64,000 bases of DNA, taken from positions 2,176,001 through 2,240,000 of the forward strand of contig OY970342.1 in NCBI GenBank assembly GCA_963717505.1, read 5' to 3'. How positions within the stretch are numbered: position 1 is the first letter of the stretch; each line of letters begins with the position of its first letter. This document shows positions 10,538 through 41,780 of this stretch, piece after piece. A model generated the notes under the pieces. It was not told where the DNA came from. It did not search any database and was given only the letters and a program-made list of their open reading frames with translations. Source of the stretch: Candidatus Eiseniibacteriota bacterium. GTDB lineage: Bacteria > Eisenbacteria > RBG-16-71-46. The position numbers were made by a program, and so were the translations under genes.

Positions 10538-10657
10538 AAGACATGATCCGAATCAACCCACTCGCTCTGCGTCAATGGCTCCGAAAATGATGCTCAGGCA
10601 ACTTCTCTTAGCTGTCTCCAATAAGATACCTGGGTGTAAATCGATCACACTGCACGC

Positions 10658-22365: not shown

Positions 22366-22392
22366 GGGGAGCCAGAAGCGCCCTCGCTAGCC

Positions 22393-22435
22393 TTGACCAT
22401 ACCCATATTGGGTATTATCCTACCCAACATGGGTA
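22393..22435 (+). promoter_or_regulatory. sigma70-type, probably leaderless promoter with tandem palindromic operators
   Basis: TTGACC-17 bp-TATCCT-7 bp-ATG(22429); ATACCCA-N3-TGGGTAT and TACCCA-N3-TGGGTA. Confidence 0.7.
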
Positions 22436-26169: not shown

Positions 26170-27737
26170 CTGAATGACCAGGGGCCGCTCGCGCGCGCAG
26201 CGATCGCCAGGGCCACCGCGACCGCCACGTGATAGCCCGTCGAGCGCGTGGCCTCGGCGCGCAGGTAGGCGGGATGCGCGGTGTTGATCCACACCGTGTT
26301 CTCGATCAGCCGGCCCAGCTCGATATCGTCGGGGCGCTCCTCGAACTGAAGCGAGAGCCCGTAGCGCTGGGCACGGGCGCGACGCGCTCGGGCTTCCTCG
26401 GCGCCCTCGCGTTCCGGGTCGGCGCCCCGTTCGGCATCGGCGGCCGAAGCCTGCAGCGGTTGGGCCTCGAGCCCGGTGTCGGGTTCGGCGGCCGCGCGGG
26501 TCTGCCGCGGCCGTGCTGGCGCCGTCCGTCGGCGGTTCTTGGGACAGCGTTGCGGTCCCGGCGATCGAGCCGCCCTCGGTCATCGCGGCGGCCATCTCGC
26601 CGCGCCCGTCGCCTCCGCCACGGGCGAGCGGAATGCGGCGCTGCCCTCCCTGCTGGCGCTCGACGAGCGAGGCGAGGAGCGGGAAGTCGGCCGTCAGCTC
26701 TTCGAGCACGCGTTCCAGGTCGCGCTCCAGGGGACGAGCAATGCGCCGCCTCTCGTCCTGGACCACGTCGCGCGCGTCGCCCCAGCGCGTGAGCTGCGTC
26801 TGCACCGCCTCCTGAATGGCGCGGCGGTACGAGAGGTAGAGGGCGCCGCGCGGGCCGGTGCGCACGAAGTCGCCCTTGTTGAGGGTGAGCGACTGGGCGA
26901 GCGAGGGTATCTCGAGAATGCCGGTGATGCGGTCCGGCGCGGTCGGGAGGATGCCGAGCCAATCCCAGCCGCGGCGAATCACTTTGCCGTACGTGCTGAC
27001 CGCGATGCCTCGCAGAGATTCGGGAAGCGGCAGGGCGTGGCGTTCCACGTAGCCCCGGCCCGAAGGCTTGCGCTGTCGCTCGATGCGGACCTCGAGCTGG
27101 GCGCGCTCGACCGCCGAACGGCGATTCGCCTCGAGCGTGCGGCCGTTGATTTCGAAACGGATCCCGCTTGGGTAGATCGGGGCGAGCGCCGCCGAGAACT
27201 CCGGCTCCAGCAGCGGCGGGTAGTGCGTGCGTACCACGTGCTCGATGAAGTCGGCGTCGAGCAGCGGCGAGAGGCCGTGCTGCAGCGCGAGCGAGACGGA
27301 GGTTCCGTTCGCCTGAATTCGACCGGGCGGCGCGATGGGTTCGTACGGCGCAACTCGCGCGAGGCCAGGTGCCATCGCGACGCCGCGTGCGATTTGCCGC
27401 GACGCGACTCGGTGACCACCTCGTGTGCCGCGAGCAGCGCGAGCTTGATGCCGACGCCCGCGAACCCGATGCCGTCGCCGCGCGTCTTGGTGCTGGCCGC
27501 TAGGTTGTGGAACTGGCGAAGCTCCTTCCAAACCATGCCGCGGCCGTCGTCCTCGAACCGGAACATCGCGCCCGCCGGCTCGGCCGAGATCTTGATCACG
27601 GTCGCGCCGGCGTCGAGGGAGTTCGCCACCAGCTCGGTGAGGATGGTTTCCTCGAGCCCTGCGGGATAGGCGTCGCGCAGGTCCTCGAGCAGGTGCCGCA
27701 GGTCCACCTTGGTGAATCCGCGGCCACGAGGCGGCAT
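26170..27737 (-). CDS. GHKL (HATPase_c/MORC-like) ATPase, frameshifted, 3' end uncertain
   Basis: ELVANSLDAGA, FEDDGRGM, GIGFAGVGIK (Bergerat motifs), LTLNKGDF, C-terminal WINTAHPAY. Confidence 0.75.
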
Positions 27738-27870
27738 GGAGGGGCTCCGGGTTGGGTCCGGGAGTATAGTGCGTCCGAGGCTTCGAGCATGATTCCCGAC
27801 ATCCGTGCAATGAAGGTGATCCCCGAGCCCGTGCCGAACACGCGGACCGTCCTGGAGCCAACGAGCCGAG

Positions 27871-28931
27871 CAGCTAAAGACAAGCTCTGCTGGTCTTACT
27901 TAGGGTCTCCGCAACTAAAGCCAATTCAGCAGGGCAGGAACCGTTCAGGCCGACTCCGGGGCCCCGTGGCCTCTTTTCATTTGGCCCCATCTACGCTAAT
28001 AATGCTCCTGGTTATTTGCGCCCCCGCGAACAAGGAGCCCTATGACGCCAGAGCGCAGGCCCCACGGGCGCAACCTCCGCGCGTCCGGCGGGTACCGAGC
28101 CTACGTGCCGGAGCCGCTCCCGCCAGCGATCGCGTGGAGCGGGGAGATGGCGGCCGCGCTCTCGGCGGCGGATCGGGCGGTGGGCCGACTGGCGGGCGAA
28201 GGCCGCGGTCTCCCGAACCCCCATTTGCTCATTCGTCCATTCGTCCGACGCGAGGCGGTGCTCTCGAGCCGAATCGAGGGCACTCAAGCGACGCTCGGTG
28301 AGTTGCTGGCAGCCGAGGCGGGTGCTGCGGTCGAGCGCAGTCCGGCGGATCTTCGCGAGGTCGGCAACTACGTTGTCGCCTCGAACACGGCATCGATCGC
28401 CTGGCACGCCTGCCACTCTCGCTGCGGCTGGTGCGCGAGCTTCACGACAAGCTCATGCGCGACGTGCGTGGCAACACGGCGACGCCCGGGGAGTTCAGGC
28501 GCAGCCAGAACTGGATTGGTCCGCCGGGCTCAACGCTGGCGACGCGACCTACGTTCCACCGCCCCCTGATCGGTTGGCGGAGTGTCTAGGCGCCTGGGAG
28601 CGGTTCCTGCACGACGATTCCATGCCGCCGCTGGTCCAGGCGGCCCTGATGCGTTCGCAGTTCGAGGCGATCCACCCGTTCCTCGACGGCAATGGGCGGG
28701 TGGGCCGGCTGCTGATCACGCTGCTATTGATCACCAGGGCGTGCTGCCGTCGCCGCTCCTCTACCTGAGCGCGTCGTGGGGAAGATTCTCGGACCGACGA
28801 TTGCTCAGGACATTGAGTGAGAATACTCAGAGCCTTGAGTACCCAGCCTTCTTCCCCATCAGCGGGGCCACAGGCCGGCCAACTAAAGCGAAGGTCTCTT
28901 GGCTTTAGTTAGCGCCTCCGCAACTAAAGCC
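27871..28931. repeat. 52-bp imperfect direct repeats flanking the Fic remnant
   Basis: 27871-27922 vs 28880-28931, 41/52 identical, both ending CTCCGCAACTAAAGCC. Confidence 0.75.
28042..28775 (+). pseudogene. Fic-family protein, frameshifted and 3'-truncated
   Basis: AYVPEPLPP, REAVLSSRIEGTQ, PGEFRRSQNWIG, QFEAIHPFLDGNGRVGR (canonical Fic motif); ends at PLLYLS. Confidence 0.85.
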
Positions 28932-29060
28932 CCTTGTTCGGAGCCTGAGGCTCAGGGAGCCGCGGATCCCAGCAAGAATACCGTGGACGAGCAATAGATA
29001 GCATCTATTGACTATGACTGCTGACCGGCCGATAATTCTCAGCGTGGGAGGGCCAACATC

Positions 29061-29336
29061 ATGGTCAATCTGAACGTGTCGCTTACAGAGTCGCAGCGCG
29101 ACTGGGTGGAGGCGCAGGTCAAAGCCGGGCGCTACGGGAACCTGAGCGAATACGTGCGAGATCTCATTCGCATCGACCAAAGTCGGGCCGCCGAGCGTCG
29201 GCTTGAAGAACTATTGCTTCAGGGAATTGAGTCGGGGCCGGCGCGGGAGGTCACTCCCGAGTTCTGGGACGAACTGAAGAGTCGTGTCGAGGACCGCCTC
29301 CGGGTCAGGAAAGGCGGTGCCCGGAAAGCGCGTTAG
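29061..29336 (+). CDS. parD: ParD-family ribbon-helix-helix antitoxin
   Basis: LNVSL...WVEAQV..GRYGNLSEYVRDLIR...LLQGIESG; TTGACT-17-GATAAT upstream (29008-29036). Confidence 0.88.
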   Translation: MVNLNVSLTESQRDWVEAQVKAGRYGNLSEYVRDLIRIDQSRAAERRLEELLLQGIESGPAREVTPEFWDELKSRVEDRLRVRKGGARKAR

Positions 29337-29637
29337 GTGGAAGCCTGAGGCGGAACGGGATCTCGAAGAGCATGTTGTCTATCTGGGCCAAGAGGCCGGT
29401 CTCCAACTAGCCTTGCGATTTATTCGAGCGGCCGAGCAGGCAATCGCGCGCCTCGTCGAATTACCTGAACTCGGAGCGCCGCGCGTATTCGAGATCCAGA
29501 AGTTGGAGAGGGTCCGCATGTGGCCGATTCCGGACTTCCCGAACCACCTCATTTTCTACCGGCCGATTGCGACCGGAGTGGAGATCGTGAGAGTGCTTCA
29601 CGCCGCGCGGGACATACCGCCAGTCCTCGAGGAGTGA
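29317..29637 (+). CDS. parE: RelE/ParE-family toxin
   Basis: AERDLEE, PELG, FPNHLIFYR....VEIVRVLHAARD. Confidence 0.88.
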   Translation: MPGKRVRWKPEAERDLEEHVVYLGQEAGLQLALRFIRAAEQAIARLVELPELGAPRVFEIQKLERVRMWPIPDFPNHLIFYRPIATGVEIVRVLHAARDIPPVLEE

Positions 29638-29672
29638 TCACGGGGTCGCAGCGGGTGAGGCAAGCGCAAGAG

Positions 29673-29701
29673 TTGACAGTATGTCCGATCCGACATACTG
29701 T
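29673..29701 (+). promoter_or_regulatory. promoter with perfect 10-bp inverted repeat operator
   Basis: TTGACA-17-TACTGT; ACAGTATGTC-N6-GACATACTGT; ATG at 29710. Confidence 0.75.
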
Positions 29702-29709
29702 GTCCTGCC

Positions 29710-30039
29710 ATGAACACGGCGAAGAGAAAGAGACTCGAATCGGCCGGATGGAAGGTCGGGACCGCGGGTGAGTTCCTTGGCCTTTCGCGCGAAGAGGCGC
29801 AGATCGTCGAGATGAGACTTGCCTTGGGCGAGAGCCTGAGGCGTCATCGCATGAAGCGGCGGCTAACGCAGATCGAGCTAGCCAGGAGGATTGGATCCAG
29901 CCAATCCCGGATCGCGAAGCTCGAGTCAGGCGCGACCGGAGTTTCTCTGGATCTTCTGTTCCGCGCGCTATTCGCAATCGGAGCCACCACGGCGGAAATC
30001 GCCCGAGAGATGCGTCCGAGGAAGCGCTCCGCGGCTTAG
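29710..30039 (+). CDS. XRE-family HTH protein (antitoxin-like, orphan)
   Basis: KRLESAGWKVG...EFLGLS, LTQIELARRIGSSQSRIAKLE.G...SLDLL. Confidence 0.85.
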   Translation: MNTAKRKRLESAGWKVGTAGEFLGLSREEAQIVEMRLALGESLRRHRMKRRLTQIELARRIGSSQSRIAKLESGATGVSLDLLFRALFAIGATTAEIAREMRPRKRSAA

Positions 30040-30066
30040 ACGAGCGCGGGAATACGAGGCAACGGA

Positions 30067-31527
30067 ATGCCCAACCTCTCGAAATCATCCTTCGTCACCG
30101 GCTGCCAGTGCCCCAAGCTCCTCTGGTGGACGGTCCACGAACCGCTCGCCGAGGAACTCCAGCCCGACAAGGTCCTGCTCGATCGCTTCGACCAGGGGCG
30201 CATCGTCGGCGAACTCGCTCGCCAGCGGTTTCCCGGCGGCGTGCTGGTCGCCGAGCCGCACCAGATCCGTGACGTGCGCCTTGCCGCCACGCGCGCCGCA
30301 CTCGATTCCGACGCCCCTGCCATCTTCGAAGGCGGCTTCCAGGCGAACGGCGTCTACGTCGGCGTCGACGCGCTGGTCCGCGGCAACGACGGCCTCACGC
30401 TGATCGAGGCCAAGTCGACCACCTCGCTCAAGGACGAGCACATTCCCGACGCCGCGATCCAGGCCTGGGTGCTGCGCGAGGCCGGCGTTCCGCCCGCGCG
30501 TGTCGAGGTTATGCACCTGAACAAGGACTACCGGCACCCGGACCAGGGCGATCTGTTCGTTCGCACCGACGTCACCGAGGCGGTCGCGGCGTTCATGCCC
30601 TCGGTGCCGGGGAAGGTGGCGGAGTTTGCGGAAGTGCTCGCGGGCGCGCTGCCGCGAGCACGAGATCGGCGCTCACTGCTTCGAGCCGCGCGACTGTCCG
30701 TTTCTCAAACGCTGCTGGCCCGATGATCCCAACCACATCTCGACCCTCTACAACACCGGCCCCAAGAAGACGGTCGCGTTCATGGCCGCCGGGATCCATT
30801 CGATCTGGGATCTCCCCGCCGGACCAGAAGCTCCCCGACGCCGCCCAGCGCCAGCTCAGGTCGCTGCGCGAGAACCGGCTGATCGTCGAGCCCGGGCTCG
30901 CGCGCGCGCTCGAGCCGTTCGAGAGCCCGCTCGGCTACCTGGACTTCGAGACCGTCGCCCGCGCGGTGCCGGTGTGGGAGGGGCTCGCGCCGTGGGGCCA
31001 GGCCACCGCGCAGTTCAGTTATCACGAGGAGCAGGCTGACGGGACGTTCACCCACGTCGGCTGGCTGGCCGAGGGGCCGGGTGATCCGCGTCGCGAGCTG
31101 GCGGAGGCGATGATTGAGGCGACGCGGGGGGCGCGGAAGATCGTGACCTACTCGGCGTTCGAGAAGACGCGGATCGCCGAGCTACAGCGTCTGGTGCCGG
31201 AGTTGGCTTCGCCTTTGGAAGAGCTGTTGGGGAAGCTCGTGGACTTGCTGCCGGTGGTGCGGGAGCATGTGTACCACCCCGGACTTCAAGGGCAGCTTCA
31301 GCATCAAGTACGTCCTGAATCCGCTGGTGCCGGACCTGACGTACAACGACCTGGTGATCGTCGACGGGCTGGTGGCGAGTGTCGAGATCGCGCGGCTGTT
31401 GTTCGTGGCGCACAAGATACCGGTCGAGGAGCGGGACCGGCTGCGGGCGGATCTGCTGGCGTATTGCGAGCGGGATACGTGGGCGATGGTGAGGTTGATG
31501 GGGAGGCTGAGGGAGTTGGGCGCCTAG
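30067..31527 (+). CDS. DUF2779-like protein: Cas4/RecB-type nuclease fused to an RNase H-fold 3'-5' exonuclease (frameshifts near 30655, 30820, 31280)
   Basis: LSKS...GCQCPK, VDAL...LIEAKST...DAAIQ, C..P.DCPF...C, YLDFET, QFSYH, GSFSIK.V, LLAYCERDT. Confidence 0.8.
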
Positions 31528-31777
31528 GGTCTGAATTCAGACCCTACGAAGGAGATAACCCCATGGCCATTCGAGCTGGCCAAGAGGGGCGGACTTAGCC
31601 ACTCCCGCCATGCCAAGGTGGAATCGGGCCTGCGTCCCCCTCCGAGTCTGATTTCTCTGGACTCCGACTTCCGGCAGGCGTTCAATTGCGCCGGGCCGTC
31701 GGCCGCCCCTCGGCTCCAGCCCTCCCGAACCTGTGCTGTCGTTCAATTCGCGAACGTAGTCCCGTCGCGCACGGAAA

Positions 31778-34700
31778 GTGGAGGTTGTCATGCGAGTTCA
31801 CTCTCTTGCACTCGCCCCCCGCGCCTGGGCACTTGCTCTTCTGGCATTGGGCTTCAGCCCACCGGTCACAGCGACGGGATCCGATCGCACGGAGCCGGGC
31901 GCAATGGCTGATGAGGTCCTCGTTCGGCTGAAAACATCACCCAACGGAAGCGTCCAAGGAAGCGCCGCTGTTGCGACGGAGCACGCACGGACAGTCGAGG
32001 CGTTCGCCGCACAGCACGGTCTTGTGCTCATGCGCGACTACCCACGTATCGGCGTGACCCGTTTTCGACTGCCGGCGGGAATCTCCACCGAGCAATCAAT
32101 CCAGCAATTCCGCGGCGACGATCGTGTCGTGTTCGCGCAGCCGAACTTCATCTACACCGCGAGTTCCTACCCTTCCGACACAGAACTCATTCCCCAGCAA
32201 TGGGGCGTGTTCTCCACCTTCCTTCCGTCCCTGTGGCGCCCCGGAACCGGGGCCAGCGGGAAGGTGATTGCCTTCTTGGACTCTGGTGTGGAGTCGGCTC
32301 ACGACGAGCTGCTAGGCGGACTCTGGACGAACGGGGCAGAGGTCGCTGGCAACAACATCGATGACGATGACAATGGATACATCGACGACATCCACGGCTG
32401 GAACTTCGTTGCCGAGACGGCGAACACCGCCGACGACAACGGTCACGGCACACACGTGGTGGGCATTGCCTGCGCTCGCGCTCACAATGAAGGCATCGTC
32501 GGTGTGGCACACGCAGCGACCTACCTACCGCTCAAGATTCTGAATCAATTCGGGACTGGCGTGAGCAGCGATATCGCCGCGGCCCTCGAATACGCCGCTG
32601 GGGAGCAGCCCAACGTCATCAACATGAGCTTCAACGTCGCAGCCACGCCGTTGGAGCCCGATGCGGACTGCATCGTGCGCGAGCAGATCGCGACGGCCCT
32701 CGAGGCTGGCTGCGTGCTAGTGGGGGCGGCGGGAAATTCGGGTGGTCTAGTGCAATTGCCGGCAGCTTTTCCGGGTGTCATTTCGGTCGGAGCTTCTACC
32801 CGTTTTGGAGGCGTGTGGAGTCACTCCAGCCACGGCTTCGACCTCGATGTCGTGGCGCCGGGAGTGGACATCTACAGCACATGGCTCGGCAACACGTTCA
32901 AGGCCGACAGTGGTACGTCGGAGGCCGCACCGTTCGTGAGTGGAATATGTGCACTCCTGCTGGAGCAATTCCCCGAAACAAAACCATGGGAGATGGAGCG
33001 CTACATTCGGACGCTGACTCGCAACTTGGACGGCAAGCTTCCAAGCGTCACCGGGAATCTCGACGGGTACGGGCTGGTCTCTTTCGGAACGATCTCGGAC
33101 TTCAGCAATGGCCCGCTACCCGACGCCTGGAGCCTCGACGATTTTTTCGAGTTCCTTGGTTCGGACTGGAGCGGAGAGTCGGAGGTGGCCGATGACGGGA
33201 CGACCGAGAAGCCGGATTGCGCAGACCAGATTCGGGACCTCGATGGACTTATGAATTCCTCCGGGCACGATGCCTTCGACGATGGCATGTTCAACGCGTC
33301 GGTGCCCAATCTTCCGCTGCTCCATGCGCATCTCTACGCCGGCCCGCCCCCTCCGATGAAAGTCAGGGTCGGCGTCGGCGACGTAAGCGGGAACCGCTGG
33401 GACAACGACACGCAGGTCGGGTTGCGCAGTTGGGTCGACTGGAACAGCGACAACACATTCACCGACCCGGCGGAGCGCATCTTGAGCGCGGTCTCGACTC
33501 CGCGAACATGGGGCGGAGACGACACGACGCTCGCGAGACCGTGGACGCCGAGCAATGAACACCCTCGCGGCAATCCGCTGCGCGTGCGCACACGGCTGTT
33601 CGGCCCTGGTACTACCTCGGCCCTCCCGGGCGGCATGCAAGAGTTTGGCGAGGTCGAGGACCAAGCCGTACTCAATTTCGTCGAAGATTTCGACGTGCCG
33701 GTTCCGCACCCGGTGGCGTACGCCACGTTGGGCGGGGCGTGGGGCCTGGTCAACGACAACGCGCCCAGCGCCTGCCCAGCCGTGGCCCCGCCGGTCATGC
33801 CGGATCCTCCAGTGAATCGCGGTGTGTTCAAGACGGCATTCGTGCACAAGACGTTTTGCCCGGGAAGCCAGATCGATAACCTGACTCTCCCGGAGTTGCC
33901 GGCGCCCGCGTTGGACCTACGCGAGTTGACCAAATGCTACGCGCGCGTCTGGTACGCGCACGCAATCGATCAAACTTGCATGCCCGGCGCACACGACGAC
34001 TGCAAGATCGTCCTCAAGTGCTTCGACGCCAACATGAATCCCTTACCCGACGTGACGCTGTTCGACTTTCCGGATCCGTTTTGCCCCACCGCGGGATATG
34101 CCACTGGCGAGACGCCACTGCTCGATCTTTCCCCCTACGTCGGCGGATACGCGCGGCTCGACGTCGTCCACGACGCCACCGACCTCTACGACGCACTGGC
34201 GATCGACGACGTGCGCATCTGGGGCTGGGACGACGAGGTCCCGAAACCAACGAAGATTGACGCGGCGAGCATGAACAAAGTTCGCGTAGCAACGATGTCG
34301 TGGAAACATCCACTGGAGAACGGGGCGCCGATGCCATCCGACCCGAACATTGAGCTGTATGGGGCGCGCCTCTGGACTGGCGACGATAACTGGGACACCG
34401 CCTATCGACTGACGCCGCGCGACTTCGTGCCCGGCTCGAGCTTCCCGGAAGCCGGTCCTCCAGGAGGCATGGCGACCGAATCGTTCCGGGTCCCCTCGAT
34501 CTTCGTCAACTACAAGGTCGGGTTGCGCGCCCAAGACGAGGAGGCTCTCGAGGGTTCGGACCTGCCGAAGCCATTCGCGACCGGAGGCACATTCAACCCC
34601 CTCGCCATCGCACTCAGTCCCGTGGTGGGTGGACAACCTGGCGACACGGTCAAGGTTGCCGTCATGCTCGTGAACGCCGGCAACGCCCTCGATGCGATCC

Positions 34701-37276
34701 TAGCCGATGCTTTCGACCGGCGCAGTTGGGCGCTGTGCCCTCATCGCTGGGCTGACGTTCTGGATCCGGGCGGTGTTTCAGTGGAGTCGCTTGAAGTGGC
34801 GATTCCTATGAGTGCGACGCCCGCGGACACCGACACTGTCTTCATCGCCACAACAAGTCTATCGGACGAGACCAAGACCGGTGGCGCGTTCGCGCTGGTG
34901 ATTGTTGGCTCAGGTGGGCCGTTGCCTAGTCCGCCTGACACTGTCGCCACGCCCGTGCCGTGCGCCAACATGTACGTGACCAACGGCATCGTGTACGACA
35001 CGGTTCGCAAGGGGAGCAGGATCTATGTCGGTGGTTTCTTTGAATACGTCGGCCCCCCAACGGGGAACGCCGCCGCGCTGGACGCCACGACCGCTGACCT
35101 CCTCTTCCCGAGCATGATCTCCGGCCAGGTGTACGCGGTAGAGCCGGATGGAGTGGGAGGTTGGTACATCGGCGGCATCTTCCATCATGTGGCGGGATTG
35201 CCTCGTGAAAACCTCGTGCACATCCTGGCGAACAGTACGATTGACGAATGGAATCCCGGGACGAACGGAGTCGTCAACGCCTTGAAAGTCAGTGGCGGCA
35301 GGCTCTACGTGGGAGGCAACTTCTCTCAGGTCGGCGGTCAGAATCACGCTGGTCTGGCAGCGATCGAGCTTGCGACCGGCCAGGTGACGTCGTGGGGTCC
35401 GACAACGCTAACAGGAGGCGGCATCAAAGCCATTCTCGTGCTCGGATCGAGAGTGTACGTAGGTGGCTCGTTCACAAGTATCGGCGGACGGCCATCGCAA
35501 AACCTCGCCTGGGTCGACGCAACCAGTGGCGCCGTTAACCCATGGATGCCTAATCCAAACGCTGAAGTCAATCACTTGGCATTCGGAACAAGTGGTGGCG
35601 CCACCATCTATGTATCAGGCTCATTCACTATGATCGATGGTCAGCCTCGCAACTATGTCGCAGCCTTCGCTTTTGCATCACAAAACCTAACGACCTGGAA
35701 TCCCAACCCAAATGCGATCGTCGCGACAGTACTCGTGAGTGGCTCCACGGTCTACGTCGGCGGCAATTTCGGCATTATCGGCGGCCAGCCACGGGCGGGC
35801 ATCGCCGCCCTCGATGCCGGAACGGGTGCCGCTACATCTTGGAACCCAGGCACCGACGGCACGGTGTTCGCGCTGGCGTTGAATGGAGCAACTATCTTTG
35901 CTGGCGGCCTGTTCACGACCGCCGGTGGGCAGCCCCGTCGCGGGCTTGCGGCGCTCGATGCGACTACCGGGAATGCCGAAGCGTGGGTCGCCCATGCCTC
36001 GGACGAGGTCGGCTGCCTCGCCACGGCCGGGAATTCCGTCTACGTGGGAGGTCTTTTCGGCAGCATCGGAGGCGAGAACCGGAAGAACCTCATCTCCCTT
36101 GACGCGAACACCGGACGAGTGACCAGCTGGAACCCCGATGTTAGCGGTCAGGTCGCCGCGATCGTTGTCAACGACAACACCGTCTACATCGGTGGCTTGT
36201 TCGGTTTCGTGGGCTCACAGCCCCGCAACCGCATTGCATCGATCGACGCCACGACGGGAGCGGTCAACCCCTGGAACCCGAGTGCGAACGGAGCGGTGAA
36301 CACGCTGGCGCTTGGCGGTACGACGCTCTATGCGGGCGGACTCTTCACCAGCATTGGCGGGCAGGCGCGCAACCGTCTCGCTGCGCTCAACATCGGAAGC
36401 GGGCTTGCAACGCCTTGGAACCCAAACGCCAACCTCTTCGTCAACAAGATCCAGTTGGAGGGTGAAAAGCTTTATGTCTGCGGAGCATTCACGACCATCG
36501 GCGGCCAACCCCGAAATCGCATTGCGGCGCTCATCACCAGTTCCGGAAACCCCACAGCGTGGAATCCGAACGCTAACGGCACAATCTCCACGCTAAGCAC
36601 CCTCGACGGCGATGTTTACGCTGGCGGGAGCTTCACGACCATCGGCGGCGCCGCTCGCAGATACCTGGCGGCGCTGGACAGCGCGTCCGGGAATGCACTC
36701 GTTTGGAACCCTGACCCCGACGGCCCCGTCCGTTCTCTTGCGATGCGGCCCGGGATTGTAGATGTCGGTGGAAACTTCACACAAATTGCTGGCCAAGCCC
36801 GAACTTATTTCGCCGAGCTCACTGCAAGTTCTGGACTCCCCACAGAGCGGAACCCAATCCTAGACGGACCCGTGTACGCATTGGCTGCCGATCCCTATAA
36901 CATTTTCATCGGCGGCGATTTCTACACGGTGTCCGACCTCTCCCGCAGATGCTATGCGTGCCTCAACCTCTTTCCACCTCCGGTTGGTGTCCCCCGACAG
37001 ACGTCAAAGTTCGTGCAGGCCCTCTTCAGTCGTGTTTCACCGAACCCAAGCACTAGGGGAACACGAATCGAATACGCACTGCCGCTTGCCGCCGATGTCC
37101 GTATTTGCATCTTCGACATCCAGGGCCGCACGGTGGCTCGGCTAGTCGATGAGAGGAAACAGGCGGGATCGCATTCGCTGACCTGGGATGACCCGCGATG
37201 CGGCCCGGGAGTCTATCTGGTTCACTTAGAGGCTGCGGGCATGAAGTCGACGCAGCGGCTGGTGAAGATTCGCTAG
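31778..37276 (+). CDS. secreted S8 (subtilisin-like) peptidase with GEVED-like domain, beta-propeller repeats and FlgD-Ig/T9SS-like C-terminal domain
   Basis: signal peptide; IAFLDSG, NGHGTHVVG, AAGNSG, SGTSEAAP; WVDWN...FGEVED; many YVGG.F..IGG..R...AA.D..TG...WNP repeats; PNP...IFDIQGR...GVY. Confidence 0.9.
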   Translation: MEVVMRVHSLALAPRAWALALLALGFSPPVTATGSDRTEPGAMADEVLVRLKTSPNGSVQGSAAVATEHARTVEAFAAQHGLVLMRDYPRIGVTRFRLPAGISTEQSIQQFRGDDRVVFAQPNFIYTASSYPSDTELIPQQWGVFSTFLPSLWRPGTGASGKVIAFLDSGVESAHDELLGGLWTNGAEVAGNNIDDDDNGYIDDIHGWNFVAETANTADDNGHGTHVVGIACARAHNEGIVGVAHAATYLPLKILNQFGTGVSSDIAAALEYAAGEQPNVINMSFNVAATPLEPDADCIVREQIATALEAGCVLVGAAGNSGGLVQLPAAFPGVISVGASTRFGGVWSHSSHGFDLDVVAPGVDIYSTWLGNTFKADSGTSEAAPFVSGICALLLEQFPETKPWEMERYIRTLTRNLDGKLPSVTGNLDGYGLVSFGTISDFSNGPLPDAWSLDDFFEFLGSDWSGESEVADDGTTEKPDCADQIRDLDGLMNSSGHDAFDDGMFNASVPNLPLLHAHLYAGPPPPMKVRVGVGDVSGNRWDNDTQVGLRSWVDWNSDNTFTDPAERILSAVSTPRTWGGDDTTLARPWTPSNEHPRGNPLRVRTRLFGPGTTSALPGGMQEFGEVEDQAVLNFVEDFDVPVPHPVAYATLGGAWGLVNDNAPSACPAVAPPVMPDPPVNRGVFKTAFVHKTFCPGSQIDNLTLPELPAPALDLRELTKCYARVWYAHAIDQTCMPGAHDDCKIVLKCFDANMNPLPDVTLFDFPDPFCPTAGYATGETPLLDLSPYVGGYARLDVVHDATDLYDALAIDDVRIWGWDDEVPKPTKIDAASMNKVRVATMSWKHPLENGAPMPSDPNIELYGARLWTGDDNWDTAYRLTPRDFVPGSSFPEAGPPGGMATESFRVPSIFVNYKVGLRAQDEEALEGSDLPKPFATGGTFNPLAIALSPVVGGQPGDTVKVAVMLVNAGNALDAILADAFDRRSWALCPHRWADVLDPGGVSVESLEVAIPMSATPADTDTVFIATTSLSDETKTGGAFALVIVGSGGPLPSPPDTVATPVPCANMYVTNGIVYDTVRKGSRIYVGGFFEYVGPPTGNAAALDATTADLLFPSMISGQVYAVEPDGVGGWYIGGIFHHVAGLPRENLVHILANSTIDEWNPGTNGVVNALKVSGGRLYVGGNFSQVGGQNHAGLAAIELATGQVTSWGPTTLTGGGIKAILVLGSRVYVGGSFTSIGGRPSQNLAWVDATSGAVNPWMPNPNAEVNHLAFGTSGGATIYVSGSFTMIDGQPRNYVAAFAFASQNLTTWNPNPNAIVATVLVSGSTVYVGGNFGIIGGQPRAGIAALDAGTGAATSWNPGTDGTVFALALNGATIFAGGLFTTAGGQPRRGLAALDATTGNAEAWVAHASDEVGCLATAGNSVYVGGLFGSIGGENRKNLISLDANTGRVTSWNPDVSGQVAAIVVNDNTVYIGGLFGFVGSQPRNRIASIDATTGAVNPWNPSANGAVNTLALGGTTLYAGGLFTSIGGQARNRLAALNIGSGLATPWNPNANLFVNKIQLEGEKLYVCGAFTTIGGQPRNRIAALITSSGNPTAWNPNANGTISTLSTLDGDVYAGGSFTTIGGAARRYLAALDSASGNALVWNPDPDGPVRSLAMRPGIVDVGGNFTQIAGQARTYFAELTASSGLPTERNPILDGPVYALAADPYNIFIGGDFYTVSDLSRRCYACLNLFPPPVGVPRQTSKFVQALFSRVSPNPSTRGTRIEYALPLAADVRICIFDIQGRTVARLVDERKQAGSHSLTWDDPRCGPGVYLVHLEAAGMKSTQRLVKIR

Positions 37277-37310
37277 GGGACTGAGGGAGTTGGCGGTGTA
37301 GCGCCCCACT

Positions 37311-37539
37311 GGCAGCTTCAGCATTAAGCACGTGCTCAACCCCCTGGTGCCCGACCTGACGTACAACGACCTGGTGATCGTCGACGGGCTGGTGGCGAGC
37401 GTCGAGATCGCGCGGCTGTTGTTCGTGGCGCACAAGATACCGGTCGAGGAGCGGGACCGGTTGCGGGCGGATCTGCTGGCGTATTGCGAGCGGGACACGT
37501 GGGCGATGGTGAGGTTGATGGGGAGGCTGAGGGAGTTGG
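37311..37539 (+). repeat. 229-bp copy of the DUF2779-like gene 3' end
   Basis: ungapped match to 31291-31519 with 10 substitutions, 9 synonymous; a 13-bp mini-copy CTGAGGGAGTTGG lies at 37281-37293. Confidence 0.95.
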
Positions 37540-37861
37540 CCGGGATTTCTCAGGATTGAGCTTCACCTGCAAGTCTGCGAGCAGGTCACCGAAATCCAGA
37601 CAACAAACCGGCGGCCGCAGTGGCCTATCTTTGACTTGACCTCCAACGATGGCAGGCCTAGCGTCCTATGCGGCAGGGATGGGCCGCCCCCACCTTTCGT
37701 CTCCTGCCTTTGGCTCCATCGCAGATCAGTCGCGCATGGCTGATTACGACGACGGGCAGAGTGGCGCTGGCGCTCAGATGCTTGGACGCGAGCTCAAGCC
37801 AATCGTGTCGTGCATGTCTTATTGCCGCCCGGCATCTGCAGTACGCAAAGGAGTGTGACCA

Positions 37862-38731
37862 ATGTGGCCTCGTACGCGAGCAAGTTGCATGTTCCTTTTC
37901 TCACTGCTGGCCATTTCGGTGAGCCCATGTGTGAGTCAGGGAGCGGAAAAACACCGGCAATCCATCAAGAACAACACTGGCGGCGACGTGAACGACCTCA
38001 AGTTGAGGTTCACAGACGACTTGAGCAGTAAGCCGAAGTTGTGGCATACGGGTGGCGCGGTCGACGTGAACGACAACGATAGGAACGATGCCAGCGAGCG
38101 AGTGGATGCGAGTTCGCAGTCCGCCAGCAACTTTCAGGCCGATTGGGCGCAAAGCACATTTGGCCGAATTCCGAACGGCGGAATAGCAGAAGTTGACTTT
38201 GAGGGAGCGCCGGAGATAGACGCGGATCACGCCAATTCCCAGTGGACACTAGACGGCGTGAACAAGGGAGCGCCTGTGGTTGTCGGCGAGCCCATGCATA
38301 TTGCGTTCAACCTAGGTACGAGCGAAGCATCCGTGACATTTGTAAACAACGGAGCGACGGCCATTACTTACTCGGACATTCAACTGTTCAAGAACAACAG
38401 CGTTGCACAGTTTGACTTGTTGCAGTTCATGGAAGCAACTGGCACGGCTGTGTCAGCGCCGAGCACGATCGTGCTCAATCCCGGCCAAGTATCGACCATC
38501 TCGCTCGGCATTGTTCAGATTGGCTCGACCTACCAACTCGCCATCGCTCGGGTTTCCGAGAACGCCAATCCGAGTGTCTTGTACAGTCTTGTTACCGGAG
38601 CGACACCGCTCGAAGCAATGCCTGCAACGTCACGATGGGGCGTAGGTGCCCTGATGGTTCTTCTCTTGTCGTCGGGCGTTTGGATGGTTGTCATGGTGCG
38701 GAAGGCGGCTACTGATACCACGACGACGTAA
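37862..38731 (+). CDS. secreted protein with IPTL-CTERM-like C-terminal anchor
   Basis: signal peptide; ends MPATSRWG + hydrophobic helix + RK; AT-richer than host genes. Confidence 0.65.
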   Translation: MWPRTRASCMFLFSLLAISVSPCVSQGAEKHRQSIKNNTGGDVNDLKLRFTDDLSSKPKLWHTGGAVDVNDNDRNDASERVDASSQSASNFQADWAQSTFGRIPNGGIAEVDFEGAPEIDADHANSQWTLDGVNKGAPVVVGEPMHIAFNLGTSEASVTFVNNGATAITYSDIQLFKNNSVAQFDLLQFMEATGTAVSAPSTIVLNPGQVSTISLGIVQIGSTYQLAIARVSENANPSVLYSLVTGATPLEAMPATSRWGVGALMVLLLSSGVWMVVMVRKAATDTTTT

Positions 38732-38772
38732 CTCGTAAGCGTCTGTAGTTCAGTGTCGGTGCACAATTGCTT

Positions 38773-39227
38773 GCCGAGGGGCCGGCCGGCCGCGTCGCAA
38801 GCTGGCGGAGGCGCTGATTGCGGCGACGCGCGAGGCGCGGAAGATCGTCACCTACTCGGCGTTCGAGAAGACGCGGATTGCCGAGCTACAGCATCTGGTG
38901 CCGGAGTTGGCTGGGCCCTTGGAAGAACTGCTGGCGAAGCTCGTGGACTTGCTGCCGGTGGTGCGGGGGCATGTGTACCACCCCGGCTTCAAGGGGAGCT
39001 TCAGCATCAAGGACGTGCTGAATCCGCTGGTGCCGGACCTGACGTACAACGACCTGGTGATTGTCGACGGGCTGGTGGCGAGTGTCGAGATCGCGCGGCT
39101 GTTGTTCGTGGCGCACAAGATACCGGTCGAGGAGCGGGACCGGCTGCGGGCGGATCTGCTGGCGTATTGCGAGCGGGATACGTGGGCGATGGTGAGGCTG
39201 ATGGGGAGGCTGAGGGAGTTGGGGGCC
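38773..39227 (+). repeat. about 455-bp copy of the DUF2779-like gene 3' end (gene fragment)
   Basis: matches about 31068-31524; encodes KIVTYSAFEKTRIAEL...LLAYCERDTWAMVRLMGRLRELG. Confidence 0.95.
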
Positions 39228-39250
39228 AATTTAGCGGGGCCGGCGAGCCC

Positions 39251-39289
39251 TTGACGGATGGACCCTTCCTGCGTACACATGTACGCATG
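39251..39289 (+). promoter_or_regulatory. putative leaderless promoter with 8-bp inverted repeat
   Basis: TTGACG begins 36 nt before ATG 39287 (same offset as the two other MNT genes); TGCGTACA-CA-TGTACGCA; -10 box weak. Confidence 0.6.
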
Positions 39290-39976
39290 AAGCGTACGCG
39301 ACGTGGCGCCGACGCCCTGTTCCCAAAGGTGAGGAAGCAGATTCTGTCTGCCCTCCTCATGAGCCCCAAGCGGTCGTGGTTCCTTAGCGACCTGGCCCGC
39401 CACCTTCGAACCCCCAAGACGAGCCTCCAACGAGAGCTCGCCAATCTCGAGGGGGCCGGCATCATCGTACGCGACGTGCAGGGTCGACAGGTTTACTACC
39501 GGGCAAATCCTTCCTGTCCGTTCCTTCCGGAACTCCAGGGGCTCTTCGCCAAGACCGCGGGGCTGGTCGACGTGATCCGGGACTCTCTCGCCAAGCTCGA
39601 TGGGCGTATCCAACTCGCCTTCTTGTACGGTTCAGTTGCCAAAGGCGAGGAAGTGACGGAGAGCGACGTCGATCTCATGGTGATCGGAAAGGTCGGTCTC
39701 GCGGATCTGGCCATGCCCATGCGGGCGGCACGCGAGCAACTGTCGCGTGATGTCTACCCAACGGTGTTCTCGCTGCAGGAATTCGTTTCGAAGGCAGGGG
39801 AGGCCGGTTTCGTTAGGACCGTGCTGGATGGCCCGAAGCTCTTCATCGTGGGAAGCGAAGATGTCCTGGAAAAAGCTCTTGGAACAGCGGCGCGTGGCTC
39901 GGCAGAAGGTCACACCGTCCGAGATAAGAACGCAGCGGGAAATCGCCGCTCGCGCACTCGCCGACGCCGTAATTGA
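39287..39976 (+). CDS. wHTH-MNT nucleotidyltransferase, copy 3
   Basis: ADALFPKVR, SLQRELANL, VYYRAN, FLYGSVAKG....SDVDLMVIG. Confidence 0.85.
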   Translation: MKRTRRGADALFPKVRKQILSALLMSPKRSWFLSDLARHLRTPKTSLQRELANLEGAGIIVRDVQGRQVYYRANPSCPFLPELQGLFAKTAGLVDVIRDSLAKLDGRIQLAFLYGSVAKGEEVTESDVDLMVIGKVGLADLAMPMRAAREQLSRDVYPTVFSLQEFVSKAGEAGFVRTVLDGPKLFIVGSEDVLEKALGTAARGSAEGHTVRDKNAAGNRRSRTRRRRN

Positions 39977-40307
39977 GGCAGTGTCCGACGACGGGCGATT
40001 CGACCGGGCCTACGATGCAGCCAGGGCTCTGGCGACCCTGGCCATCCGCGCGTCGGGTTACCGCGTGAAGGGAACGGGCGGAGGCCACTACAATACGTTC
40101 CTGGCACTCGAGGCTGTGGATCCGGCACGATTCTCCCCGTTTTCCGCCTACTTCAACCTGTGCCGTGAGAAGCGCAATGAGCTGAACTACGTGCATGCAG
40201 GAGTGGTTTCGCGCAGCGAGCTCGACGAAATCCTGGAGCAGACGCCGCTGTTCCGGGAGGCTGTCGAGGATTGGCTCCGGGAGAAGCATCCGGAATTGGC
40301 CTCATAG
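39861..40307 (+). CDS. HEPN-like toxin
   Basis: RFDRAYDAAR...IRASGYRV...GGH..TF, REKRNELNY; overlaps MNT. Confidence 0.7.
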   Translation: MSWKKLLEQRRVARQKVTPSEIRTQREIAARALADAVIEAVSDDGRFDRAYDAARALATLAIRASGYRVKGTGGGHYNTFLALEAVDPARFSPFSAYFNLCREKRNELNYVHAGVVSRSELDEILEQTPLFREAVEDWLREKHPELAS

Positions 40308-40382
40308 CCCGGCGTTCGGTCGTCGGCATCGAGGTTCTTGCAGGTCCGCCAGATCACGCAGTAAGCAGGGAAAGAGGAAGAC

Positions 40383-40760
40383 ATGACCACCCAGACCGAC
40401 CTCAAACTCACGCGTGTCGGCTACCTCATGATCCCCGTCCGCGACCTCGCCCGCGCGCTCGCCTTCTACCGCGACTCGCTCGGCCTGCCGGTCCACTTCG
40501 CCAACGACGAGTTCGCGTTCCTGAATGGCGGCGGCGTGGCGCTCGCGCTCCGGCACGCGAAGGACTTCAAGGCCGAGCCCGAAACCTCGGCGATCGAGGT
40601 GGTATTCGAGGTCGAGAACATCGATGCGGCCTACGAGTCGCTACGCGCCCGCGGCGTCTCGTTCCGCATTGCTCCGAAAGAGGCGACCGGCGACAAGTTC
40701 GTTGCCGACTTCCGCGACCCGGACGGGCACGTGCTCAGCATCTTTGGGCCAAAGGCTTGA
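40383..40760 (+). CDS. VOC/glyoxalase-family protein
   Basis: PVRDLARALAFYRDSLGL, FEVENIDAAYESL, FRDPDGH. Confidence 0.9.
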   Translation: MTTQTDLKLTRVGYLMIPVRDLARALAFYRDSLGLPVHFANDEFAFLNGGGVALALRHAKDFKAEPETSAIEVVFEVENIDAAYESLRARGVSFRIAPKEATGDKFVADFRDPDGHVLSIFGPKA

Positions 40761-40808
40761 TCCGCGCGAGCTAATGAAAGTGCCGCGCGGGATCCGGCGC
40801 CCCGCCGT

Positions 40809-41780
40809 TCACTTCCCCAGCAGGGCGCGGGCGCGCGCCTCGCAAAACGGCCGCATCGGGCAGCGCACGCGGATCGAGGCGTTGTCGTCGAGCCCGACCG
40901 ATGCGTATCGATCGGCCGAATCGGCCCACACCGTGGCGACGGTCGCCCCGAGCGCGTGGAGCCTGAGTGCTGCGGCCATGTTGGCGCCCGAGCTGATGCC
41001 CACGCAGTAGCCGAAGTGAGCGCGGATGCGCGCGGCCGTAGCGCGTGCCTCAGCGCTGCTCACGGCGAGGATCTCGTCGACGGCCCCGAGATCCACGAGG
41101 TCGGGCACGAATCCGTCGCCGATCCCCATGATGTCGTGATCTCCGGCCGGGCCGCCGCGCATGACCTGCGACTCCTCGGGCTCGACGGCAACCAGTCGCA
41201 CGTTCGGCATGGCCGCGCGCAGCGCCTGGCCCACGCCCATCAGCGTGCCGCCGGTGCCCACGCCCGCGACGAAGTAGGCCAGCCGATCACACCCGTTCTC
41301 GCGCAGCTGTGCCACCAGCTCGACGCCCGTCGTCGTCGCATGGCACCGGGTGTTGTCGGGGTTGCCGAACTGATCGGGAACGTAGTACCCGCGCCGGCCG
41401 CGGTATTCGTCGCGCAGGCGCACCGCTCCTTCGAACCCGGATGCTTTGGGCGTGAGTCGCACTTCGGCGCCGAGTCGCTCGAGCATGCGCCGGCGCTCGA
41501 CGCTCATGTGCTCGGGCATGAAGATCATCACGCGGTGCCCGAGCGTGCGCCCGACCCAGGCGAGCGCGATGCCGGTGTTGCCCGACGTGGTTTCGACGAT
41601 GACGTCACGGGGCTTGAGATCACCGCGCGCCGCGGCTTCGATCAGCATGAACTTGGCGATGCGATCCTTGACGCTGCCCCCCGGGTTGGCGCACTCGAGC
41701 TTGGCGTAGACGCCGTCGGCGACGACCAGCGGCGTGTGGCCGATCCGGCTCAGCTCGGTCGAGGCTTCAGGAGTCGACAT
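40809..41780 (-). CDS. PLP-dependent cysteine synthase-family protein
   Basis: YAKLECANPGGSVKDR, ETTSGNTG, DQFGNPDN, GVGTGGT, VGISSGAN. Confidence 0.9.
   Translation of the reverse strand: MSTPEASTELSRIGHTPLVVADGVYAKLECANPGGSVKDRIAKFMLIEAAARGDLKPRDVIVETTSGNTGIALAWVGRTLGHRVMIFMPEHMSVERRRMLERLGAEVRLTPKASGFEGAVRLRDEYRGRRGYYVPDQFGNPDNTRCHATTTGVELVAQLRENGCDRLAYFVAGVGTGGTLMGVGQALRAAMPNVRLVAVEPEESQVMRGGPAGDHDIMGIGDGFVPDLVDLGAVDEILAVSSAEARATAARIRAHFGYCVGISSGANMAAALRLHALGATVATVWADSADRYASVGLDDNASIRVRCPMRPFCEARARALLGK

Follow-up and report, generated by a model that had tools for sequence, protein, structure and literature searches.

The genes and gene fragments that follow a DUF2779-family nuclease gene in this genome are, as read from the sequence, probably the scars of serial recombination, by homology-facilitated illegitimate recombination (HFIR) or by single crossover, anchored in the conserved end of that gene. 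This footprint is most likely of a known kind and not that of a new gene-capture machine. The array lies in a window of 64,000 nt (the whole stretch of DNA analyzed) and occupies positions 30067-40307, where the DUF2779 gene is followed by an S8 peptidase gene, a 13-nt copy of the DUF2779 gene's 3' end, a copy of ~232 nt, the gene for a predicted secreted protein, a copy of ~457 nt, and an MNT-HEPN gene pair.

Organization of the array

A repeat search of the window and a blastn search of the genome confirmed the repeats at the positions given in the initial annotation of this DNA, and the locus comprises the following features:

29061..30039, + strand: upstream context, ParD (29061-29336), ParE (29284-29637) and XRE-type HTH (29710-30039), by Pfam
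30067..31527, + strand: anchor gene, DUF2779-family nuclease, by PF11074, tblastx and global alignment to the orthologue L010
31069..31524, + strand: repeat copy 1 (E1), the 3' end now completing the gene, by repeat search, blastn and codon comparison
31778..37276, + strand: cargo 1, S8 subtilase of 1832 aa, by Pfam
37281..37301, + strand: 13-nt copy of the extreme gene end with its own tail and stop codon, by exact match of CTGAGGGAGTTGG
37311..37559, + strand: copy B, last 76 codons of another allele, stop codon at 37557-37559
37862..38731, + strand: cargo 2, predicted secreted protein of 289 aa, by translation
38771..39254, + strand: copy C, last ~150 codons of a third allele in one frame, stop codon at 39252-39254
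39287..40307, + strand: MNT-HEPN pair, MNT 39287-39976 and HEPN 39861-40307, by PADLOC and Pfam

In the repeat search 31278-31524 aligned with both 37298-37544 (91%) and 38981-39227 (97%), and 31086-31282 aligned with 38790-38986 (92%). When the gene was compared with the whole 4.16-Mb genome by blastn, its positions 998-1458 matched copy C (94.1% over 461 nt) and its positions 1225-1456 copy B (95.3% over 232 nt), and no further copies of the gene end were found in the genome. The sequence CTGAGGGAGTTGG occurs exactly four times in the window, at 31507, 37281, 37527 and 39210, the count expected by shuffling being 0.04 and four occurrences being reached in none of 100 shuffles; elsewhere in the genome it has no occurrence.

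The S8 subtilase, encoded by a gene of 5.5 kb, carries DUF5122/Rax2 beta-propeller repeats and a C-terminal Por_Secre_tail (type IX secretion) domain, and the 13-nt copy begins 4 nt past its stop codon. The 289-aa protein, predicted to be secreted and to have a hydrophobic C-terminal anchor, matched nothing in Pfam, NCBIfam or PADLOC; its C-terminal stretch, MPATSRWG..., presumably resembles an IPTL-CTERM signal, as judged by eye. The MNT-HEPN pair, which is probably the oldest resident neighbour, matched the PADLOC candidate system PDC-M05 (PDC-M05A, E=3.2e-61; PDC-M05B, E=5.5e-38). The right ends of the two cargo units lie 4 nt and 40 nt after a stop codon, and such tidy ends, beyond what random breakpoints would give, hint at selection or at cassette-like units. 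The GC content is 61.9% in the first unit (31528-37280) and 56.3% in the second (37545-38770) versus 67.7% in the genome, and 60.8% in the upstream ParD/ParE/HTH stretch; according to the GC profile the higher-GC core region restarts at the glyoxalase gene at 40383. No tRNA genes were found in the window, and no RNA family was matched in an Rfam search of 27000-42000 with E values up to 1.

Divergence of the copies

Comparison of the gene with copy B over the 76 shared codons yielded 9 synonymous differences and 1 non-synonymous difference, and comparison with copy C over the same codons 4 and 1, reproducing the counts of the initial annotation (9/10 and 4/5). Its observation of a single codon reading TAC, CAC or GAC (Y/H/D) was reproduced as well, the other 75 of the 76 residues being equal in all three copies. 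If random changes were synonymous in about a quarter to a third of cases, the binomial probability of 9 in 10 would be near 1e-4. Going beyond the earlier counts, the upstream 73 codons of copy C differ from the gene by 7 synonymous and 11 non-synonymous changes. Past the shared ...RLREL the reading frames end differently, with GA* in the gene, AV* in the 13-nt copy, AGISQD* in copy B and GANLAGPASP* in copy C; the downstream DNA also differs from copy to copy, each fragment keeping its own tail and flank. Mostly synonymous differences, together with the distinct codons past ...RLREL, mark the copies as ends of different functional alleles, and the synonymous excess (9/1 and 4/1) upholds the earlier claim to this effect. 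Judged by their codons, the copies are shown to be alleles that diverged under purifying selection and not decayed duplicates, and their common 3' boundary simply marks the point at which conserved coding sequence stops.

The divergence between gene and copy B is mosaic: the first 45 nt contain 7 of the differences and the last 183 nt contain 3 (Fisher p=0.0006), whereas 126 distant alleles diverge equally across both parts (21.0% versus 22.2%). At the three junctions the similarity fades and has no sharp end; possible microhomologies of 4-7 nt seen by eye (GGGGA, CCCC, GCTKGCC) are weak or ambiguous.

The anchor gene

The piece of the anchor in frame 0 (window 30813-31283) matched PF11074 with 99.4 bits, the gathering cut-off being 23.3 bits, and copy C also attains 23.3 bits; a search of the genome recovered both places. 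The encoded protein has a C-terminal RNase-H-like exonuclease domain and probably an N-terminal Cas4-like PD-(D/E)XK part. Its N-terminal pieces had no Pfam match, the intact orthologue L010 gave a weak PADLOC match to Cas4 (E=3.5e-5) and stayed below the cut-off for TIGR03491, and cysteine motifs are seen in the translation of the anchor gene. A combination of two nuclease domains is described for DUF2779 proteins (PMC13621843, PMC3985635).

As assembled, the anchor is not one open frame, as it contains three single-base insertions relative to L010, which has 509 aa. They lie near 30655, 30818/30819 and 31277-31283, giving the frame order 1 > 2 > 0 > 1. A short-read contig of run X1 has one base fewer than the assembly at 30819, and copy C lacks the extra base present at ~31283 in the anchor gene. 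The three +1 frameshifts are possibly assembly errors, since one of them is absent from the short-read contig.

In a comparison of 120 intact alleles, conservation of the DUF2779 gene was highest in the last 76 codons, at 75.5% nucleotide and 79% amino acid identity versus 66.0% and 62%, respectively, in the rest of the gene.

The assembly consists of one contig of 4.16 Mb, is 86.7% complete and contains further genes split by frameshifts, namely those for Fic, a BPTD_3080-type restriction enzyme and a molybdopterin oxidoreductase, in addition to the DUF2779 gene. Run X1, the only public run found, provides soil metagenome contigs that contain 8% of the sampled words, their scattered cover leaving 37401-39200 bare. 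Its short-read contigs match 36126-36865 in the S8 gene as well as 39240-39397 without a mismatch, and none of those listed bridges an array junction.

The footprint at other genes of the genome

At the atp locus atpD-atpC is followed by 6.6 kb of cargo and then by a 366-nt 3' fragment of atpD and a second atpC. The homology ends just past the atpC stop codon, and the duplicate differs by 4-8%, with 9 synonymous and 3 non-synonymous differences in one part and 16 and 4 in the other. Likewise, the last 28 aa of LigD are copied 570 nt downstream of their gene, and the last 28 aa of an SNF2 helicase are copied 1.1 kb downstream. In total, a C-terminal remnant nearby, outside other long ORFs, was detected for 7 of 2625 long ORFs, in all 7 cases downstream, a count from which an antisense ORF lying over copy C was left out. 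A scan at DNA level listed 3' ends in 13 rows and 5' ends in 11; as tandem paralogues or repeats account for several rows, the scan shows no more than that both kinds occur. These searches show the footprint, as a sequence pattern, to be generic in this genome and not tied to one gene.

DUF2779 loci in related Gemmatimonadales

We compared the array with 159 related DUF2779 loci, 79 from genomes and 80 from metagenomes. The initial annotation had proposed a survey of such loci for self-fragments interleaved with cargo. The arrangement recurs, as downstream 3' fragments of 20-53 codons with unrelated cargo are present in 5 of the 159 loci (on 4 contigs); fragments are absent from the other 154, which speaks against a dedicated system. 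The cargo in the five loci includes a REC-TIR protein, an MFS sugar transporter and a Transgly_assoc protein. Within about 20 kb of the gene, self-fragments were found in none of 10 loci of relatives from the same family or order.

Two pairs of loci are informative on the origin of the stubs. The stranded 125-nt fragment of L160 together with its flank matches the intact gene end of L185 and its flank, and the fragment of L159 with its flank matches the intact gene end and flank of L160, indicating that stubs are former resident ends in their native context. Furthermore, the flanks of L160 and L151 are 95-96% identical and their genes only 85%, which indicates that whole alleles are exchanged. 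Full DUF2779 genes stand in tandem at L035, the contig with L159 and L151 holds two full genes and two fragments, and at L033 one gene is preceded by a 5' fragment. Several related loci have a tRNA gene and tRNA-like fragments immediately 3' of the DUF2779 gene.

Stubs of the 3' end were counted for 3 of 153 DUF2779 ORFs versus 0 of 662 other long ORFs in the related loci (Fisher p about 0.007), the loci having been chosen around the DUF2779 gene and kin not being independent. This count was restricted to incomplete copies of coding 3' ends and replaced a cruder one: 1.72 Mb of related loci contained 72 repeat pairs, of which about 7 touched the DUF2779 gene, no more than expected from its 13.5% share of the sequence.

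The S8 subtilase, the 289-aa protein, MNT, HEPN, HTH, ParDE, Fic, glyoxalase and PALP had no syntenic match in the 159 loci, where cargo and flank proteins gave three isolated weak matches in all. The beta-eliminating lyase, a core neighbour, has 56-61% identity in relatives, and its neighbours are not conserved, so that these relatives are too distant to serve as empty-site references for the window. No donor genome with any of the three units was found among these loci.

Search for recombinases

The absence of an integrase, claimed in the initial annotation, was borne out, as Pfam searches detected an integrase or transposase in 0 of the 84 ORFs of the window. PF00589 (tyrosine recombinase) has 6 matches in the genome, the nearest ~155 kb from the window, and PF00239 (serine recombinase) has none in the genome. 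Used as tblastn queries, the six integrases of the genome found nothing in the 159 related loci, and no recombinase is encoded by the 130 ORFs that follow the DUF2779 gene in related loci. Paired inverted repeats resembling attC were not evident among the 25 longest inverted repeats of the window.

Discussion

Serial recombination could have built the array as follows. The last ~76 codons of the DUF2779 gene would act as homology anchor beside a hypervariable accessory region of lower GC content, a role suggested by their being the most conserved stretch of the gene among Gemmatimonadales. At least three times, DNA of a related strain carrying the 3' part of the gene and its own downstream genes would have entered and undergone homologous recombination within the gene, its other end joining non-homologously slightly downstream, within the resident gene's own 3' end, as in HFIR; integration of a circular piece by single crossover would be an equivalent route. 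In each event the donor's 3' end would complete the gene, followed by the donor's cargo and then by the stub of the previous end with the previous neighbours. The order would be, oldest first, copy C with MNT-HEPN, copy B with the gene for the 289-aa protein, the 13-nt stub, and the current end with the S8 gene, and later gene conversion between the direct repeats may have evened out the distal 183 nt. We infer route, order of events and gene conversion from the present arrangement. The initial annotation had likewise proposed that each incoming unit of 3' end and cargo restored the gene and pushed the old end downstream; the displacement agrees with the match between L160 and L185, and the restoration is in doubt given the three frameshifts.

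A tandem pattern of replaced ends is known at tRNA genes and with cis-mobilisable elements, and tandem accretion at the 3' ends of tRNA or protein genes needs, as integron arrays do, a tyrosine recombinase and a defined core site. Such arrays share with ours the repeated gene 3' ends (or attC) between co-oriented cargo and the newest unit nearest to the anchor, but here no recombinase was found and the repeats vary in length (13 to 457 nt) and are as diverged as alleles. Tandem site-specific islands with an att site overlapping the DUF2779 3' end, their integrases lost or acting from elsewhere in the genome, are unlikely, even though the geometry equals that of accretion at a tRNA gene, an exact 13-nt stretch marks the boundary common to all four copies, the genome has six tyrosine-recombinase matches, and tRNA genes and tRNA-like fragments follow the DUF2779 gene in several related loci. 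The common 13 nt are the last conserved codons (LRELx), the units are small (0.4-6 kb, one or two genes each), recombinases are missing from the window, the related loci searched by tblastn and the 130 downstream ORFs, and a duplicate spanning the atpD end and all of atpC with 4-8% difference is unlike an att core; the 5' fragment upstream at L033 and the tandem full genes at L035 do not fit either. Rather unlikely, too, is that whole units of gene and cargo were integrated by single crossover and that deletions then trimmed the downstream copies to 3' stubs. Two complete genes in tandem on related contigs (L035; L159/L151) and the exchange of whole alleles between L160 and L151 would agree with it, but one extra deletion per stub is required and blastn revealed no intermediate with two full copies in the genome. 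This course of events is itself a recombination-scar model, differing from the preferred serial recombination in route only.

A quite improbable reading takes the array for a working integrase-free cassette store, in which the gene-end repeats loop out circles and the DUF2779 protein perhaps raises the rate. If it were true, circles of one gene end and its cargo would re-enter related genomes by single crossover at the same gene end, and Gemmatimonadales would trade single-gene cassettes at DUF2779 and other conserved gene ends in an integron-like manner. Chaining of strains with different genes after the same gene end into one assembly path is very unlikely. The single 4.16-Mb contig that is 86.7% complete, several frameshift-split genes, the one-base disagreement with the short-read contig at 30819 and junctions bridged by none of the listed X1 contigs (which contain 8% of the sampled words) would allow for such an artefact, but the stubs begin at different internal points and are joined to unique sequence, and chaining through a repeat could reorder units yet cannot create such junctions. 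In addition, the X1 contigs match 36126-36865 and 39240-39397 without mismatch and the footprint is also present on 4 other metagenome contigs. Highly improbable, finally, is a dedicated integrase-free accretion system in which the anchor's Cas4-like/exonuclease protein processes ends for capture at its own gene, as the initial annotation had speculated. Two nuclease domains in one protein are indeed described for this family (PMC13621843, PMC3985635), and stubs are commoner at DUF2779 (3/153 versus 0/662 ORFs, in loci chosen around the gene and from non-independent kin). Against that idea stand the same footprint at atpD-atpC, LigD and SNF2, the 154 of 159 related loci devoid of fragments, the 0 of 10 relatives' loci with fragments within about 20 kb, the frameshifts in the anchor gene as assembled, and events that show no link to the protein's activity.

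Serial recombination at a conserved gene end has close counterparts. HFIR is described for natural transformation in Acinetobacter, Streptococcus pneumoniae and Pseudomonas stutzeri (PMC5361080) and for conjugation in E. coli (PMC3240628). Common to HFIR and our array are one homologous anchor with one non-homologous join, foreign DNA beside a conserved stretch, the lack of a recombinase gene, and single crossover of circularised DNA as alternative outcome. Here, however, the process is read from scars in the genome of an uncultured member of the Gemmatimonadales and was not observed, and three events are stacked at one anchor with the illegitimate joins all inside the end of the anchor gene. 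In the type VI secretion (T6SS) effector-immunity arrays of Vibrio cholerae, which arise by sequential displacement (Kirchberger et al. 2017, PMC5361080), each new module is added next to a conserved anchor upstream, and older genes, sometimes with an old 3' gene end, are displaced downstream, resulting in ordered arrays in which no integrase takes part; the authors of that work propose an HFIR-like route and liken the result to integrons. As described there, the genes retained in these arrays are immunity genes, which are obviously selected, and the one displaced encodes a toxin, whereas our array is anchored in a nuclease gene and carries unrelated cargo (protease, secreted protein, MNT-HEPN). 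The rhs/cdiA loci resemble the array in that orphaned 3' ends are strung downstream of one full-length gene, each with a partner gene (Jackson et al. 2009, PMC2935791). In rhs/cdiA the 3' tip carries the variable toxin, preceded by the conserved core, whereas here the 3' end is most conserved and variation is found in the DNA beyond the gene. The variable toxin tip with a following immunity gene that marks polymorphic-toxin displacement was not seen here, the 76 residues of the end being equal bar one in the three copies.

The locus thus provides an unusually clear, three-deep record of how an uncultured soil bacterium may have gained accessory genes (a secreted protease, a surface protein and a defence pair) with no enzyme of a mobile element. 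As the ATP synthase operon is followed by the same scar, which several related metagenome contigs also carry, the recombination route is suggested to add regularly to the growth of islands in Gemmatimonadales. It would leave a signature that can be counted across genomes: an intact gene, cargo, and a stub of the gene's end with synonymous divergence.

Genomic setting of the array

The host genome is a single contig of 4.16 Mb with a GC content of 67.7%, and its relatives by gene content are uncultured Gemmatimonadales. GC drops to 55-65% at ~28.6-40.4 kb of the window, compared with 66-71% to the left and right, and the core of higher GC starts again at 40383. The low-GC stretch contains a DUF2779-family nuclease gene followed by cargo genes that alternate with copies of its 3' end.

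Features of the low-GC stretch (window coordinates)
Start of the stretch, before the DUF2779 gene, + strand: ParD, ParE and an XRE-type regulator
30067-31527, + strand: DUF2779-family gene
31778-37276, + strand: S8 subtilase, 1832 aa, with a type-IX-secretion C-terminal domain
37281-37293, + strand: 13-nt copy of the last conserved bases of the gene
37311-37544, + strand: ~232-nt copy of the gene end (copy B)
37862-38731, + strand: gene for a 289-aa secreted protein without family match
38771-39227, + strand: ~457-nt copy of the gene end (copy C)
39287-40307, + strand: MNT-HEPN pair matching the PADLOC candidate system PDC-M05

The stretch at 10.8-40.4 kb reads as a defence and toxin-antitoxin island. 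PDC-M05 genes of the window comprise three nucleotidyltransferase (MNT) and two HEPN genes, at 21685-23470 and 39287-40307, and AbiE, PDC-S01, a type III methylase fragment and ParDE are also present. A perfect 18-nt palindrome, GGGTCTGAATTCAGACCC (31527-31544), lies at the start of the S8 unit, overlaps the end of the gene's stop codon by one base and is not followed by a T-run.

The gene-end copies derive from different alleles

A repeat search of the window recovered the repeats at the positions given in the initial annotation, and they are the sole copies of the gene end in the 4.16-Mb genome. Four copies of the 13-mer CTGAGGGAGTTGG are present in the window (0.04 expected) and none elsewhere in the genome. 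The earlier codon counts were reproduced: across the shared 76 codons copy B shows nine synonymous and one non-synonymous difference, and copy C four and one. The codon reading Y, H or D was also reproduced. The fragment array itself is confirmed. Upstream of the shared 76 codons copy C shows seven synonymous and 11 non-synonymous codon differences, the first few of which fall at the fading boundary of similarity. As the synonymous excess reflects divergence while each copy was part of a working gene, it supports the original claim that the copies are ends of different alleles. The common 3' boundary also exists, but it coincides with the point at which the conserved protein naturally ends, which was missed earlier: the residues after ...RLREL are GA*, AV*, AGISQD* and GANLAGPASP* in the four copies and AIDTSTRL* in an orthologue.

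The gene and copy B differ at seven of the first 45 shared bases and at three of the other 183 (p=0.0006), whereas 126 distant alleles diverge equally across both parts. We interpret this mosaic as post-insertion gene conversion between the repeats, a process that would have spared the edges; the alternative source would be a recombination breakpoint.

The DUF2779 gene, initially described as full, is found at its assigned place, but as assembled it is not one open frame. Relative to the 509-aa orthologue at locus L010, which is intact and comes from a related genus, it contains three single-base insertions, overlooked before, near 30655, 30818/30819 and 31277-31283; the third is absent from copy C, and otherwise the reading is clean and well conserved. 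The insertions may be assembly errors or real gene breaks. In a short-read contig from a soil run a single base is missing at 30819, split DUF2779 genes also occur in four related loci (L044, L059, L065, L103) and the genome, though one contig, is only 86.7% complete by score, all of which favours errors. Real breaks are favoured by the clustering of broken genes in the accessory region (DUF2779, Fic, which is split in two, and a BPTD_3080-type restriction enzyme, split in three) and by the intactness of the 5.5-kb S8 frame and of every long gene at 40-64 kb. Genes split over two or three frames lie at 10793-13788, 28042-28768 and 2277-4636 (BPTD_3080-family restriction enzyme, Fic protein, molybdopterin oxidoreductase), and the accessory region has a higher density of split genes than the core.

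Stranded gene ends in related loci

No self-fragment was found within ~20 kb in 10 loci of same-family or same-order relatives. Another 159 DUF2779 loci, comprising 79 species representatives and 80 metagenome contigs, were compared. Five of the 159 loci (L151, L159, L160, L167, L168) have an intact gene and, downstream of it, an additional 3' fragment 20-53 codons long; L151 and L159 being one contig, they represent four independent metagenome contigs. The fragment ends at the natural gene end in four of the five, and the cargo is different in each. In L160 the intact gene is followed by 2.8 kb encoding a gag-asp-protease-like protein and an MFS sugar transporter, and then by a 125-nt stub. 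Almost every base of this stub and of the DNA beyond it agrees with the intact gene end of L185 and its flank. L159 and L160 form a second such pair, the stub and flank of the former matching the intact end and flank of the latter. These matches provide direct evidence for reading a stub as a former resident gene end, and support the earlier model in which an incoming unit displaces the old end downstream.

Two tandem complete DUF2779 genes were found at one locus (L035) and a 5' fragment upstream of the gene at another (L033). L168 (8675-8966 and 10877-11263) contains an internal stretch of the 3' part of the gene that stops ~18 codons short of the end and runs straight into a copy, 82% identical, of the 300 nt preceding the intact gene. 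This arrangement resembles a junction left by an earlier tandem or circular unit. Between L160:1-4838 and L151:6918-13142 identity is 95-96% in the flanks but falls to 85% across the DUF2779 gene and the beginning of its neighbour; therefore, whole gene alleles have been swapped between close relatives.

The comparison with control genes suggested initially yielded a modest excess: among long ORFs of the related loci a partial copy of the coding 3' end was detectable for 3/153 DUF2779 genes and 0/662 others (p ~0.007 by our arithmetic), a difference weakened by the choice of loci around this gene and the kinship of some of them.

The same footprint at unrelated genes

In the atp operon of the same genome (G000:C1:1577697-1586712, corresponding to L191:1697-10712) atpD-atpC is followed by 6.6 kb, then by a 366-nt piece of the atpD 3' end and another complete atpC. 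The insert encodes two large secreted-type proteins on the opposite strand (a DUF7619 and a Kelch-repeat protein), the atp copies differ by 3.8% (nine synonymous, three non-synonymous codons) and 8.0% (16 and four), and homology stops a few bases past the atpC stop codon. LigD has its final 28 codons repeated 570 nt downstream (G000:C1:707169-710590, L192), and an SNF2 helicase its final 28 codons 1.1 kb downstream, beside an internal piece of the same gene (G000:C1:3389894-3394657, L195). Genome-wide, 7 of 2625 long ORFs have a remnant of their last 60 residues nearby on the same strand and outside any long ORF, leaving out one row, a spurious antisense ORF over copy C. All seven remnants lie downstream of their genes; 5' remnants upstream of genes also occur in a DNA-level scan. 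The footprint at unrelated genes implies that the process is general and that the DUF2779 protein is not needed, so the proposed dedicated, nuclease-driven accretion system is not supported.

Recombinases and gene neighbours

The reported absence of an integrase held, as a Pfam scan of 84 window ORFs yielded no integrase or transposase. The genome has six PF00589 matches, the nearest ~155 kb from the array, and none to PF00239, and the six integrases, used as queries, gave no match in the 159 related loci. Recombinases were likewise not found among the 130 ORFs just downstream of the DUF2779 gene in related loci (0/130), which are very varied (transporters, peptidases, PIN toxins, Uma2, UvrD helicases, chloride channels).

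In related contigs DUF2779 genes are followed, ~150-250 nt downstream, by a tRNA gene of 88 nt that has a long variable arm; the window has none.

88-nt tRNA genes in related loci (all on the - strand)
L160:7193-7280
L184:10642-10729
L167:890-977
L077:3442-3529 and 10610-10697
L176:10602-10689
L098:9754-9841

These genes are ~80% alike, their anticodons differing by locus (ARAGORN: GTC, Asp; CAC, Val; CTC, Glu), and six genes from five loci pass the Rfam tRNA gathering score (52-61 bits), with L176 below it. A class-II-shaped tRNA with varying anticodons is odd. A Lactamase_B-DUF3006 pair in L160 is flanked by a ~130-nt palindromic repeat and a 114-nt direct repeat (5472-5732, 7074-7586), the latter consisting of a hairpin and a tRNA-like 5' piece; relatives of these repeats occur just after, sometimes before, DUF2779 genes (about 36 matches across related loci).

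Gene-end-anchored recombination as a model

Among 120 intact alleles conservation of the gene is highest in the last 76 codons (75.5% nucleotide identity versus 66.0% elsewhere) and next highest in the first 50 codons. A one-sided homologous anchor requires just such a well-conserved stretch adjoining highly variable DNA. The most economical account of the array is recombination anchored in the gene end. Incoming DNA would recombine homologously there, and its far end would be joined non-homologously shortly beyond, within the resident gene's end (homology-facilitated illegitimate recombination, HFIR); equivalently, a circularised piece would integrate by single crossover. Either route would yield donor end, cargo, resident stub and the stub's old neighbours, and the rightmost unit would be the oldest. 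HFIR and single crossover are described as alternative fates of incoming DNA (PMC3240628). Kirchberger et al. propose the same insertion route for the stacked effector-immunity arrays of Vibrio cholerae, which they liken to rhs 'orphan' ends and integrons (PMC5361080).

As a point against this account, neither a donor nor an empty site was found when cargo and flank proteins were compared with the 159 related loci and the core neighbour was followed in relatives; junction microhomology in the window is ambiguous. Both cargo units end close to a stop codon (within 4 and 40 nt), tidier than chance, which leaves room for selection or cassette-like units. The array junctions found no read support in the one public run compared. 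An assembly artefact could have reordered the units, but it cannot produce stubs joined to unique sequence, and the footprint was seen again in the four independent metagenome contigs. With recombination anchored in the gene end as the preferred reading, the array represents a new, unusually deep example of an already known type of recombination scar.
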